Assembly: GCA_964350565.1 (NCBI GenBank)
Contig: CAYGKN010000003.1
Span: 1-45,244 of the forward strand
DNA from: an uncultured Gammaproteobacteria bacterium
GTDB lineage: Bacteria; Pseudomonadota; Gammaproteobacteria; CAYGKN01
DNA length: 45,244 nt
Direction: 5' to 3'
Of this stretch, positions 37,347 to 40,519 are shown one piece after another. Under the pieces are notes generated by a model. It saw only the letters and a list, made by a program, of their open reading frames with translations. It was not told the origin of the DNA and did no database searches. Position numbers and translations under genes: made by a program. Position 1 is the first letter of the stretch; the number at the start of each line of letters is the position of its first letter.

Positions 37347-38768
37347 TCAATCGCTTGATAACAATTGACTGAAATCAATTATCTGTGAGAAATAATCTTC
37401 ATCCACTAGTGCATCACTCACCCCATTCACATGAATGAGCACAGGGCGACATGAAAATCCTTTGGGCCGCTTCAATTTGGCGATTTTTTGTTGAACCTCA
37501 CCAATAATTTCTATACCAATGGGGTTTTTAGAAAACTTAATTTCACAAATATAAAGCGTGTTAAAACGTGTTTGAATCATATAATCAATTTGACAACCTT
37601 CTTGATTTTGCGTTTTTCTTTGAAAATAAGGATTTTCGCAAACGATATCTGATAGATGAATGTCCAGCAACTGATACAAAGACAATCGATTGCTTAACAC
37701 CAAATTTTCAAACTGCATGCCCATCATGCTATGCCATTTTGGCAATGAGGATATGGCATAGCTATTTCTTTGAATGGCACTTAAATGTGGTTCAATATAT
37801 TTTAAATAATACCGCAAATAATTGTCGGATAAGCGATACTGTCTAGATTTAGAATCTTTTTCTGTCTTTAGATCCCAAGCATAATCTACAGTTACAAAAC
37901 CCGCCAAAGCCAATTCTTCTAGATATTCTGCAATCCGTCCATGCCGACTAATGCCCAGTAATTCAGAAATAGCATTTTGAGCTTTTGATCCATTAATTAA
38001 TACCCTAATAATCTTTTTATAATAATCTGTTTTTCTCAAAAAAACATCTGAGAAAATTCTCTCAAATTCATCCACCAAAAAACCCCCTTTGCTAAAGCAA
38101 AGATTCTGAATATTTTCCTCAGCAGATTTATTAGGAAATACTTCTTCAAGATATTTAGGGATCCCACCTGTCACGGAGAGTACTTTAAATTTTTCATAAG
38201 CAGAAATATGATCCGGCCAAAATTCCGAGCAATCAGCCAACGTCAATTCGTCTAAACTCAGTGTATAAGAAATTCTTCCGACAAATCCTGTATGACTGAG
38301 AATATTTTTCTCTATCCAGCTAGAAGCGGATCCACACACCACAAAAATGAGTTCATCATTTTTTTTCAGTTGCATATCCCAAAAATTTTTTATTTTTCCC
38401 AGAAAAGTAGGATCCTTAGAGCCCATCCAAGAAATCTCATCAAACAGCATCAGCATTTTTCCTGATTGCACCCTCTCACCAATGGCCCAGAAAGCGTCAC
38501 TCCAATCGTCAAAACGAGCTCTAGCCGTCTTAAACTCTCGTGCAATTTGCCTAGAAAACTCATCCAACTGATGAGAAGCTGTCGTATCCGCATCCATAGG
38601 CAGACCAGCAAAAGAATAATAGTGGTCAAATTCTTTGCTAAATTCTTCAATGAGGCGACTTTTACCGATACGTCTTCGCCCTCGAACCACCACAAATGAA
38701 GCTGAACCCTTGGTTGCCAGGGCCCTTAATATCTTAAGCTCTTGTTTTCTTCCGATAAATTTAGACAT
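37347..38768 (-). CDS. ATPase_2 (archaeal/MJ-type) ATPase with HTH and C-terminal PD-(D/E)XK (DUF234-like) domain
   Basis: MSKFIGRKQEL, GRRRIGKS, LFDEISW, CGSASSW, TGGIPKYL, YRLSDNYLRYY, QIDYMIQT...YICEIKFS. Confidence 0.9.
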   Translation of the reverse strand: MSKFIGRKQELKILRALATKGSASFVVVRGRRRIGKSRLIEEFSKEFDHYYSFAGLPMDADTTASHQLDEFSRQIAREFKTARARFDDWSDAFWAIGERVQSGKMLMLFDEISWMGSKDPTFLGKIKNFWDMQLKKNDELIFVVCGSASSWIEKNILSHTGFVGRISYTLSLDELTLADCSEFWPDHISAYEKFKVLSVTGGIPKYLEEVFPNKSAEENIQNLCFSKGGFLVDEFERIFSDVFLRKTDYYKKIIRVLINGSKAQNAISELLGISRHGRIAEYLEELALAGFVTVDYAWDLKTEKDSKSRQYRLSDNYLRYYLKYIEPHLSAIQRNSYAISSLPKWHSMMGMQFENLVLSNRLSLYQLLDIHLSDIVCENPYFQRKTQNQEGCQIDYMIQTRFNTLYICEIKFSKNPIGIEIIGEVQQKIAKLKRPKGFSCRPVLIHVNGVSDALVDEDYFSQIIDFSQLLSSD

Positions 38769-38858
38769 GGAGACAGAAATCACTAAAAACGGTTTTATGT
38801 CTCCAATATACACCATTAAAACAGAGACGTAAAATCGTTTTTAGTGATTTCTGTCTCC
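38769..38858. promoter_or_regulatory. Pair of 35-bp operator-like sites in inverted orientation, 20 bp apart, abutting the start codon
   Basis: GGAGACAGAAATCACTAAAAACGGTTTTATGTCTC (38769-38803) versus reverse complement of 38824-38858, 33/35 identical; each arm has GAGAC...GTCTC ends; minus-strand TTTACG-N17-TATATT spans them. Confidence 0.8.
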
Positions 38859-38992
38859 GATCTTTGCCATCGACTCTGCCACGTCCCGAATCTTTTAAAA
38901 GCAACGATGATTAAGGAGAAAAGCCTGATGCACAAAATACCAAAAAATCATTTTAATTTATTGTTTTTTCAAGATCTGAGGAATTGTTTAAC

Positions 38993-39080
38993 TTACGTAA
39001 AATATGTAAATACACATTCTACGTAAACTTCTCAGGCCCTCAAAAATGGCGTAGAATGTGTAAATACACATTCTACGTAA
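38993..39080. promoter_or_regulatory. Pair of 34-bp palindromic operator-like sites, 20 bp apart, upstream of the second ATPase
   Basis: TTACGTAAAATATGTA-AA-TACACATTCTACGTAA (38993-39026) and TGGCGTAGAATGTGTA-AA-TACACATTCTACGTAA (39047-39080, perfect 13-2-13 core); TTCTCA-N17-TAGAAT overlaps them. Confidence 0.8.
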
Positions 39081-39088
39081 GGTGCCAT

Positions 39089-40519
39089 ATGTCTTTTATC
39101 GGTCGAGAAATGGAGTTAAAGACACTCAAAGAACACATCCAAAAGAGAATTTCTAGCCTTATTGTGATTAAAGGACGTAGGCGGATCGGTAAAAGTCGAC
39201 TGATTGAAGAGTTCTGTAAATCATATACTCATTACATTTTTGTCGGCCTGCCTCCTACAGACAAAACCACCAAACAAAGTCAACTTGATGAATTTTCGAA
39301 TCAACTGAGCCTTGCCTTTGGAATTCCGGGAATCAAAGCAGAGGATTGGAATGGATTGTTTTTATTACTTGCACAATATACGCAAAAAAAACGAGTGATT
39401 ATCGTATTCGATGAAATTTCATGGATGGGTTCAGCGGATCCAGATTTTTTAGGCAAACTGAAAAATGCTTGGGATCTACATTTCAAAAAAAACCCCAAAT
39501 TGATGTTGATATTATGTGGCTCTGCTTCTCACTGGATCGAGAAAAATATTTTATCGAGCACGGGATTCTTAGGAAGAATATCTCACACCATCTCTCTTAA
39601 CGAAATGCCACTTTCCGATTGTAATCAATTTTTTAATCAACAAGGTGCTCATCTTTCTGCTTATGAAAAGTTGAAAATTTTATCGGTAACCGGTGGAATT
39701 CCTCGTTATTTGGAAGAAATTCAACCTCGATATTCTGCAGAAGAAAACATCCGAACGCTATGTTTTAAAAAAGGCGGCTTACTAACCAATGAATTTGAGA
39801 AAATATTCTCCGATTTATTTGGAACTAGAAATGAAAAATACAAAAAAATCGTAAGAATTTTGGTGCAAAACAGCTTAGAATACGATGCAATTTGTGAAAA
39901 ATTACAGATCAGCAAATCTGGAAATATCAGTGATCACTTGAATGAATTAATCATTTCTGGATTTATTAGCCGTGATTATACTTGGAATACCAAAAATGGA
40001 ATCAGCTCCAAACTACTTTCAAAATACCGATTAAAAGACAATTTTTTGAGATTTTACCTGAAATATGTAGAAAGTAAATTGCCAGAAATAGATAATAATG
40101 ATTATCAATTTAAATCTCTTCAATCGCTTCCAGGGTGGAGCTCGATCATGGGCCTACAATTTGAGAATTTAGTTCTCAATAATAAAAAACTTATCCATCA
40201 GAAATTAAACCTATCTCCAGATGAGATTGTCGTACAAAACCCTTATTTTCAACGTCAAAGATCTCGACAAAAATCCTGCCAAATTGATTATATGATTCAA
40301 ACTAGAACCAATATTCTCTACGTTTGCGAAATTAAATTTTCAAGAAATCCATTAAAAAAAGACATTATCCATGAAATGAAAGAAAAAATATCCAGACTCT
40401 ACTTGCCAAGAGGCATGTCTTATTGCCCCGTATTAATTCACGTCAATGGAGTATCTGACAGTATCATCGATAGCGATTATTTCACGGAAATCATCGATTT
40501 TAGTGATTCACTTTATTAA
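39089..40519 (+). CDS. Paralogous ATPase_2/HTH/PD-(D/E)XK protein
   Basis: MSFIGREMEL, GRRRIGKSRLIEEF, FDEISWMGS, TGGIPRYLEEI, QIDYMIQT...YVCEIKFS, PVLIHVNGVSD; colinear with 37347-38768. Confidence 0.9.
   Translation: MSFIGREMELKTLKEHIQKRISSLIVIKGRRRIGKSRLIEEFCKSYTHYIFVGLPPTDKTTKQSQLDEFSNQLSLAFGIPGIKAEDWNGLFLLLAQYTQKKRVIIVFDEISWMGSADPDFLGKLKNAWDLHFKKNPKLMLILCGSASHWIEKNILSSTGFLGRISHTISLNEMPLSDCNQFFNQQGAHLSAYEKLKILSVTGGIPRYLEEIQPRYSAEENIRTLCFKKGGLLTNEFEKIFSDLFGTRNEKYKKIVRILVQNSLEYDAICEKLQISKSGNISDHLNELIISGFISRDYTWNTKNGISSKLLSKYRLKDNFLRFYLKYVESKLPEIDNNDYQFKSLQSLPGWSSIMGLQFENLVLNNKKLIHQKLNLSPDEIVVQNPYFQRQRSRQKSCQIDYMIQTRTNILYVCEIKFSRNPLKKDIIHEMKEKISRLYLPRGMSYCPVLIHVNGVSDSIIDSDYFTEIIDFSDSLY

Follow-up and report, generated by a model that had tools for sequence, protein, structure and literature searches.

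In type II restriction-modification systems, controller (C) proteins act through paired palindromic C-boxes that lie over the nuclease promoter, so that autoregulation limits the toxic nuclease, and their distinct specificities avoid cross-talk. The genes of Orc1/Cdc6 proteins, for their part, adjoin their own dyad-containing recognition boxes, which are bound via the winged helix and the AAA+ domain. The present work deals with two divergent genes for paralogous ATPase-nucleases in a stretch of 45,244 nucleotides (positions 1 to 45,244 of contig CAYGKN010000003.1, assembly GCA_964350565.1; hereafter, the window) from an uncultured Gammaproteobacteria bacterium. Each of these genes is preceded by its own pair of palindromic sites, and these palindromes probably point to the DNA that each protein binds.

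The two window proteins resemble PDC-S27, as they match its hidden Markov model (HMM) and contain an ATPase_2 domain, and no match to Pfam DUF234 (PF03008) was found in the left or the right protein at E <= 0.01. PDC-S27 and PDC-S01 are PADLOC candidates that were found by their embedding in defence loci and are described as fusions of ATPase domains with PD-(D/E)XK members that abound in archaea and bacteria (PMC12988326). The single-gene PDC-S27 has the Pfam ATPase_2 ('archaeal ATPase') domain, frequently together with DUF234. Of eight candidates tested in E. coli B, four protected from T7, T5, or T4, and neither the PDC-S27 representative, which came from another organism, nor the PDC-S01 representative was among these four (10.1101/2024.09.26.614923). 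The subclade to which the window genes belong differs from PDC-S27 at large in being concentrated in host-associated, small-genome bacteria. With regard to structure, the archaeal Walker ATPases 2qen and 2fna are the closest match to residues ~1-370, but they lack the C-terminal nuclease. Unlike Orc1/Cdc6, the window family does not suggest an origin function and is present in several copies per genome, each with different sites. The likeness to C proteins would be one of functional analogy only: there is no separate small helix-turn-helix (HTH) protein and no methyltransferase, the putative DNA-binding domain lies within the nuclease-ATPase itself, and 36-bp sites at a 54-55-bp period are found here in contrast to the one compact C-box of C-protein systems. 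No description of adjacent cognate palindromes, of a 54-55-bp period, or of cassette boundaries was found for PDC-S27, PDC-S01, PF01637, DUF234, or DUF4143 in the literature searched, supplements excepted.

Paired palindromes upstream of the ATPase-nuclease genes

The two paralogs stand head-to-head across 320 bp (left start at 38768, right start at 39089), as described in an earlier note on this DNA, and the dyad-to-dyad distance of their sites is 54 bp at the left and the right gene alike, the two sets of sites being unrelated in sequence (Table 1). For the left sites, that note had given a length of 35 nt, a 20-nt spacing, ends of their own (GGAGACAGAAA..TTTATGTCTCC), and a match of 33/35, all of which stand, but the match (94%) is between complementary strands, so that the two copies are inverted and not direct. 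The two 34-bp palindromes reported for the right gene are present as well, with a start-to-start distance of 54 bp and an imperfect distal copy. In the 1.45-Mb genome, the right 13-mer arm (<=1 mismatch) occurs three times, always at its own locus, while the left 14-mer core is found twice at its locus and two further times elsewhere with one mismatch, which is about the level of chance. The window sites are neither a product of chance nor a dispersed repeat. An in-frame ATG is located 48 nt upstream of the left start (38816), within the inter-site spacer.

Besides this pair, the same genome contains three full-length paralogs (on contigs C37, C23, and C16) and one internally deleted copy (C42), and a different palindrome lies directly upstream of each of the six, including the deleted one. 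In the latter (C42:1780-2880; L006 910-1410 and 1492-2010), the middle ~145 residues have been lost, among them most of the winged helix, and the deletion leaves two open reading frames (ORFs) of 166 and 172 aa.

A homolog scan with one genome per species yielded 521 confirmed relatives, the best 80 of which were kept (52-71% identity). These homologs come from metagenome-assembled genomes labelled Legionellales, Coxiellaceae, Francisellaceae, Chlamydiae, Dependentiae, Marinamargulisbacteria, and Rickettsiales/Paracaedibacteraceae/Midichloriaceae. Palindromes were called by a single criterion (arm >=10, <=1 mismatch, loop <=20, total 26-60 bp). Among the 75 loci with at least 200 bp of sequence before the gene, 64 had an upstream palindrome, versus 18/150 in-gene, 7/70 downstream, and 4/71 far-upstream windows and 48/375 dinucleotide shuffles, which corresponds to 6-13% in the controls. 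The spacing was analysed in 86 loci (the 80 homologs and the six own copies), 80 of which gave a top palindrome, and a second copy, defined as at least 65% identical, was present in 45 of these 80. The offsets were 53 bp at three loci, 54 at 25, 55 at 12, and 56 at two, the others being 65, 86, and 110, and several weaker second copies are likewise located at +/-54. The 54-55-bp period that had been anticipated for homologs is thus borne out, as 42 of the 45 second copies lie at 53-56 bp. Most pairs within a locus are direct copies, and those of L025 and L027 are inverted like the pair of the left gene. The 80 closest homologs (L008-L087) belong almost all to host-associated or intracellular bacteria of several phyla, and the narrow range of identity across these phyla suggests exchange within the host-associated habitat.

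Upstream sites are present in one to four copies per locus, each of ~36 bp, at a period of 54-55 bp. Their symmetry reaches 0.76-0.98 at distances of 8-18 bp to the dyad, has dropped to background at 22 bp, and is poor in the centre. The centres of adjacent half-sites, whether of one site or of neighbouring sites, are therefore ~27 bp apart, so that two to eight half-sites of alternating orientation follow one another at even intervals. Within the arms, C occupies position 5 in 86 of 128 half-sites, AA is conserved at positions 10-11, and an inner AAA(T)/(A)TTT is common across arms that are otherwise private to their lineages. The arms are lineage-specific yet conserved among orthologs, and the sites occur beside their own gene only. 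Thus, six loci whose proteins are 64-71% identical to that of the right gene keep ACTACGTAGAAT..ATTCTACGTAG, whereas the centre, the spacer, and the flanks diverge. Moreover, the distal and proximal copies within a locus have an identical arm type. This conservation of the arms, together with the arm mismatches and the Rfam results given below, is read here as a constraint on double-stranded sequence.

The arrangement extends to more distant relatives. A second subfamily, to which the C16 copy is similar and which is ~28-32% identical to the window genes, is present in 31 of the 300 genomes sampled from the class, frequently in at least five copies per genome; 24 of its 27 loci have palindromes, with pairs ~55-58 bp apart, and a few of these loci overlap the first homolog set. 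In the Wolbachia phage WO, a member with 28% identity (L130, MN180249.1, 11271-12734), annotated as 'archaeal ATPase, fused to C-terminal DUF234', has two 37-bp palindromes, TAACCGCGG..CCGCGGTAA, 56 bp apart and directly before the ATG. Plasmid members with sites are found in Paracaedimonas, Desulfosarcina, and Emticicia.

Table 1. Genes, palindromic sites, and promoter-like matches in the window, and the sites of the other copies in the same genome (by contig).
Feature	Position	Strand	Description	Basis
Left gene	37347..38768	-	473 aa; ATPase_2-type P-loop nucleoside triphosphatase, helical domain, winged helix, C-terminal PD-(D/E)xK nuclease	ORF, Pfam, PADLOC
Left proximal site	38769..38803		35-36 bp; dyad-symmetric ends GGAGACAGAAA..TTTATGTCTCC; abuts ATG; dyad at -18.5	
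Left distal site	38824..38858		35 nt; inverted copy of proximal site, 33/35; dyad 54 bp off	
Left promoter-like match	38833..38805	-	TTTACG-17-TATATT; 9/12 consensus; -35-like in distal site, -10-like in 20-bp spacer beside proximal site	
Inter-cassette stretch	38859..38992		no feature found	
Right distal site	38993..39026		34 bp; imperfect palindrome TTACGTAAAATATGTA / TACACATTCTACGTAA, 16-nt arms, 88%	
Right promoter-like match	39029..39057	+	TTCTCA-17-TAGAAT; 9/12 consensus; -10-like in left arm of proximal site	
Right proximal site	39047..39080		perfect core CGTAGAATGTGTA-AA-TACACATTCTACG at 39050-39077, 13+2+13	
AAGGTG ribosome-binding-like motif	39079-39084		follows right proximal site	
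Right gene	39089..40519	+	476 aa; same architecture as left gene	ORF, Pfam, PADLOC, predicted structure
AAA_14 + DUF4143 gene	28964..30139	+	391 aa; PADLOC PDC-S01	Pfam, PADLOC
Palindrome before AAA_14/DUF4143 gene	28927..28961		35 bp, 14/17 arm matches; perfect 21-bp core 28934-28954; 2 nt before start	
Full-length paralog	C37		three palindromes (CTCTACTACAAAC..), spacing 54-55 bp	
Full-length paralog	C23		one upstream palindrome (GTAGCCA..TGGCTAC)	
Full-length paralog	C16		two palindromes (TTAGGGAGGAATATA..), 86 bp apart	
Internally deleted paralog	C42		one 47-bp palindrome CATCTGCTCAAAA..TTTTGAGCAGATG, intact	

Protein architecture and the case for autoregulation

The left and right proteins are colinear, with 257 of 474 residues identical (54%, BLASTP). 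Both score above the gathering cut-off of Pfam ATPase_2 (PF01637; 64.6 bits left and 59.9 right, cut-off 33.2) and match the PADLOC HMM of PDC-S27, PDLC04984 (left, E 1.4e-87, residues 1-435 on profile positions 1-437 of 474; right, E 2e-92), as does the C16 paralog over its full length (E 1.1e-174). The sole C-terminal Pfam match is to DUF4143 on the left protein, weak and below the cut-off (E 0.0039), and NCBIfam assigns no family, the Lrs14/Sta1 HTH models alone giving matches far below their cut-offs (E 0.004). The right protein was modelled by AlphaFold from an 81-homolog alignment with a predicted local distance difference test (pLDDT) score of 92.9, and its predicted winged helix comprises H2 (265-272), H3 (278-289), and a wing (293-315). 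For residues ~1-370, the closest Foldseek matches are PABY2304 (2qen, E 4e-12) and SSO1545 (2fna, E 7e-10), followed by NRC3, Apaf-1, and CED-4 (NB-ARC) and by ORC/Cdc6, with E values of up to 1e-7, while a profile search of solved structures with the homolog alignment returned 2qen alone (E 0.0043). The modelled order of nucleotide-binding, helical, and winged-helix domains is that of a module like those of the signal transduction ATPases with numerous domains (STAND) and ORC-Cdc6.

The C-terminal 139 residues, modelled separately (pLDDT 92.7), have the fold of a PD-(D/E)xK nuclease. Foldseek relates this domain to NucS (2vld, E 3e-4) and also to EndoMS, SduA, McrC, and Can2, and VIA-align relates it to AF1548 (Z 9.1; root-mean-square deviation 2.8, 108 aligned), NucS (Z 8.9), and Can2 (Z 8.3). 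Both the fold, with its alpha-beta-beta-beta-alpha-beta core, and the residues of the E..D..(D/E)xK motif place it in the PD-(D/E)xK superfamily. In 81 sequences, Walker A (G29-K35 in right-gene numbering; G29..G34-K35), Walker B (D108-E109), and the nuclease residues D400, E414, and K416 are invariant, and E359 is nearly so. A prediction of the two-copy homodimer gave no answer (score 0.00) and was used neither for nor against binding.

The reading preferred here, which is held with moderate confidence, is that each protein binds its own sites via its winged helix and represses its own promoter, so that proteins and sites would form orthogonal pairs and each gene would be a self-regulating one-gene module. 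The orthogonality proposed in the earlier note draws partial support from the facts that every paralog in the genome has a different site and that orthologs keep their arms while the surroundings diverge. Promoter-like matches overlap both site pairs, as had also been proposed, with five consensus matches in the region versus 1.5 +/- 1.2 in shuffles. Moreover, in 46 tandem loci, 24 -10-like hits cluster in the six positions that immediately precede the downstream site, versus ~1 per position elsewhere, and the median position of the proximal dyad relative to the start codon is -64.5 (quartiles -81 and -43). From their positions, the sites are likely to bracket or overlap the core promoter and the leader.

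In the proposed mechanism, one protomer would occupy each half-site through its winged helix, a two-fold dimer would sit on each site, and neighbouring dimers would touch via their ATPase domains. The left gene and about one in two tandem loci would have their -10 element in the spacer of 18-20 bp and their -35 element in the distal site, in its promoter-proximal arm; once bound, the array would therefore extend over both the core promoter and the transcription start, and the gene would be repressed. Such repression could keep a potentially toxic nuclease scarce, and private specificities would let at least five paralogs coexist without cross-regulation. More speculatively, an altered occupancy of the sites, through an infection cue, the ATP state, or titration, might raise expression and free the nuclease, which could then act in defence or as an addiction module.

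A link between the sites and the winged helix is suggested by several comparisons. The observation that the two proteins differ most around the HTH extends to the family, since the least conserved window of 15 residues is 262-276 (H2 and the turn before H3; 0.28 vs 0.55 overall), with window 328-342 nearly as variable (0.30; 81 aligned homologs). The partial Mantel correlation between site and HTH given the rest of the protein is 0.173, which none of 2000 permutations reaches, and that between site and rest given the HTH is 0.031. Similarly, the turn and H3 have five of their 11 columns among the top 25 by mutual information with the site, versus 16 of 171 columns outside 235-316 (Fisher p 0.0037). 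The conservation window and the Mantel and mutual-information results all ignore ancestry. As to single residues, R279 goes with G at site position 2 in 12/17 versus 4/57 cases, as raw counts. Two motif/site classes that recurred in separate clusters of an unweighted pair group (UPGMA) tree were dropped, because one of them came down to a single change in a likelihood tree.

A number of observations weigh against autoregulation through cognate sites. To begin with the proteins, the top mutual-information columns also include positions far from the HTH (329, 146, and 186). When the HTH columns are left out of the tree, the R279/G2 association amounts to ~4 changes and 3-4 independent pairs, that of K[ST]G.. 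with TCAC[CT]AA to 4-8 independent pairs, and that of Y..SG with TGCGCA-type sites to one, with p 0.5-1 in each case, and the hand-made motif classes give no support for covariation; with only 1-8 independent pairs, these tests are underpowered or unsupportive. The co-diversification of HTH and operator claimed in the earlier note is, thus, upheld by the tests that ignore ancestry but not by the tree-aware ones. Concerning the promoters, the positions given are consensus matches only and no mark of function, the best -10 match of the right gene falls inside its proximal site and not in the spacer, and no Shine-Dalgarno sequence is recognisable between the site and the ATG of the left gene (window 38768-38803). 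Among sequencing runs, the locus is present in four DNA runs of a single biofilm metagenome study, one of which may be its source, and in no RNA run. With respect to the sites, 11 of the 75 homolog loci have no palindrome by the criterion used, nor do two of six distant plasmid members, from a haloarchaeon and Rhizobium. Both the presence of up to four tandem sites at a locus and the retention of its site by the internally deleted C42 copy fit poorly with a plain operator, and L030 (1501-2916) and L064 (1501-2583), with one in-frame stop each, have likewise kept their upstream palindromes. Furthermore, sites are not confined to the 5' side. The C23 copy (L004) is flanked by 36-bp sites at C23:7241-7276 and C23:8750-8785, 31/36 identical and in direct orientation, one of which abuts the stop codon. 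On a Parachlamydiaceae contig, L050 has two sites upstream (positions 30-130 of the locus) and two downstream (positions 1626-1716), 55 bp apart in each pair, and the downstream pair cannot be a promoter there because it faces the end of a convergent gene. In L052, a site lies 490 bp downstream of the gene. Finally, the part of the mechanism that concerns defence is unsupported, because the PDC-S27 representative mentioned above gave no protection against T7, T5, and T4.

Cassette boundaries and rival explanations

Comparison of related loci in different surroundings delimits the unit to which the sites belong. The similarity runs from -110 to the stop codon in L048/L071 (89% DNA identity), from -89 in L068/L075 (91%), from -87 in L081/L083 (86%), and, for the left gene and its relative (OWN_L/L057, 76%), from -65, which is inside the distal site (~-90 to -55) and where the blastn alignment may simply fail to reach further; all four end at the stop codon. 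Three of the four pairs begin to resemble each other near the outer margin of the distal site, and neither blastn nor tblastx relates the flanks of the pairs. Two further pairs, L042/L046 and L066/L072, are syntenic, as orthologs should be. Sites and gene behave as one ~1.5-kb cassette, in which the ATPase-nuclease ORF is the only gene, with no recombinase gene beside it. In the window, the neighbours of the cassettes are bioF and a ComEC-like gene, and neither cassette holds another ORF. The sites travel with one gene only and, therefore, the factor that recognises them should be the product of that gene, which is an argument and not a measurement. The genome is alone in its family among those compared, its best BioF match being 38% identical, so no empty bioF-comEC junction was found.

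These same boundaries also support the strongest rival, according to which the sites are the cis-acting anchors or termini of a one-gene cassette, selfish or mobile, whose protein would use them for its own spread or retention through homing, site-specific insertion, or an addiction scheme that holds site-bound protein inactive, with repression as a by-product. Such a role of the sites is considered unlikely. In its favour, four pairs at 76-91% DNA identity define a sharp unit that ends at the stop codon between unrelated flanks, the C23 copy and L050 have sites on both flanks, and small genomes harbour up to five or more paralogs. In addition, the family is spread over Legionellales/Coxiellaceae, Francisellaceae, Chlamydiae, Rickettsiales, Dependentiae, and Marinamargulisbacteria at 52-71% identity, as well as over plasmids and phage WO, and as many as four tandem sites exceed what repression needs. 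The resemblance to insertion sequences whose transposase binds a promoter-overlapping end lies in the candidate binding sites at the 5' boundary and in the unrelated contexts. However, the elements are one-ended, because just one of the 65 loci scanned has a counterpart of its site near the 3' end, plus the C23 copy outside that scan, so that the matching terminal repeats of a transposon or insertion sequence are missing in 64/65 loci. Neither a transposase nor a DDE, HUH, tyrosine, or serine recombinase is present, visual inspection of the four boundaries revealed no target-site duplication, and, to our knowledge, PD-(D/E)xK nucleases do not carry out strand transfer. The sharp boundaries could also arise by gene conversion between homologous cassettes or by selection on a minimal unit. 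The mobility or recognition ends that the earlier note had offered as an alternative draw some support from the bounded cassette and from the two doubly flanked loci. In its most specific version, which seems equally doubtful, sites and gene would make up a one-gene selfish element whose protein recognises the private array of ~36-bp sites at the cassette edge and uses it beyond repression. The protein might move or copy the cassette or exclude rivals with the same sites, or the array might act as a DNA 'antidote' that keeps the nuclease inactive, such that loss of the cassette kills the cell.

A second rival, which is rather improbable, holds that the palindromes act by structure alone and without a sequence-specific protein, either as a cruciform in the DNA or as a 5'-leader hairpin with an effect on translation, termination, or the stability of the mRNA, in which case the arms could drift as long as pairing is kept. 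The left pair could indeed form a single stem of 35 bp, closed by a loop of 20 nt, that ends at the ATG, L025 and L027 show the same inverted arrangement, and the proximal site is probably transcribed. There are also weak, sub-threshold matches to long-hairpin models in Rfam 15, the best with 39.8 bits vs 249 and mir-787 with 39.6 vs 57, but no family reaches its gathering score. Against this rival, the arm sequence, and not just its pairing, is conserved among orthologs at 64-71% identity and is shared by the distal and proximal copies. Moreover, positions of an unpaired type are conserved (C at 5, AAA at 9-11), and, among the arm mismatches (114 of 836 pairs), those compatible with G:U are not in excess on the sense strand (G/T 29 vs A/C 26). 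The distal copy lies upstream of the predicted -10 element and would be outside the transcript, and most pairs are direct, not inverted, copies. A further sub-threshold match, to WsnRNA46 (25.7 bits vs 65.3), was followed to the phage WO locus, where nothing was found. The remaining rival, that the sites are operators of unrelated host regulators encoded elsewhere, has nothing specific in its favour and is very improbable, as six different sites in a 1.45-Mb genome would demand six regulators and as gene and sites pass from phylum to phylum together, as a one-gene cassette.

Sister family, surroundings, and implications

The third, more distant ATPase-nuclease of the window, which encodes AAA_14 and DUF4143 domains and starts at 28964, is preceded by a 35-bp palindrome, as the earlier note had stated, although an imperfect one. 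Among PDC-S01 homologs (26 loci, L141 being left out), a palindrome of 31-47 bp lies at -55..0, abutting the start codon, in 24 loci, versus 17/78 control windows. In contrast to the window pair, PDC-S01 genes usually have one site, with no tandem pair and no 54-bp period, and their arm classes CCATGAAAAT and CCTTGCAAAT are common to more loci than the arms of the window family. Judged by these sequence features, the AAA_14/DUF4143 palindrome is a parallel phenomenon in a sister family. In C23, the upstream site is common to the paralog and to a divergent AAA_14/DUF4143 gene, which also has its own 23-bp palindrome.

A GC-rich hairpin repeat with the core CCCCGCTTTCGCG has 184 matches (<=1 mismatch) on 68 of the 116 contigs, including positions 9331, 18823-18871, and 22900 of the window. 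By its appearance, it is a dispersed element similar to repetitive extragenic palindromic (REP) sequences, and copies of it adjoin the ATPase-nuclease paralogs on C37, C16, and C42. Just past the ComEC-like gene, a Schlafen AlbA_2 ORF (42917-43390, +) and a HATPase_c_4 ORF (43344-44117, +) overlap in different frames, which looks like a frameshifted gene because these domains usually form one protein.

The proteins of PDC-S27 and PDC-S01 are annotated merely as 'ATP-binding protein', and both rank among the most frequent candidate defence genes of archaea and bacteria (PMC12988326). If the DNA ligand of each protein adjoins its gene, the family would be directly testable for binding, ATP dependence, cleavage, and structure on a defined 90-bp DNA, and it would provide dozens of orthogonal pairs of a protein and a 36-bp site that share one geometry. 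The occurrence of a one-gene cassette across intracellular bacteria of several phyla and in phage WO raises, in turn, the question of how it moves. Should the reading as a selfish element be true instead, the family would represent a natural library of long-site, ATP-dependent, sequence-specific nucleases with matched targets.

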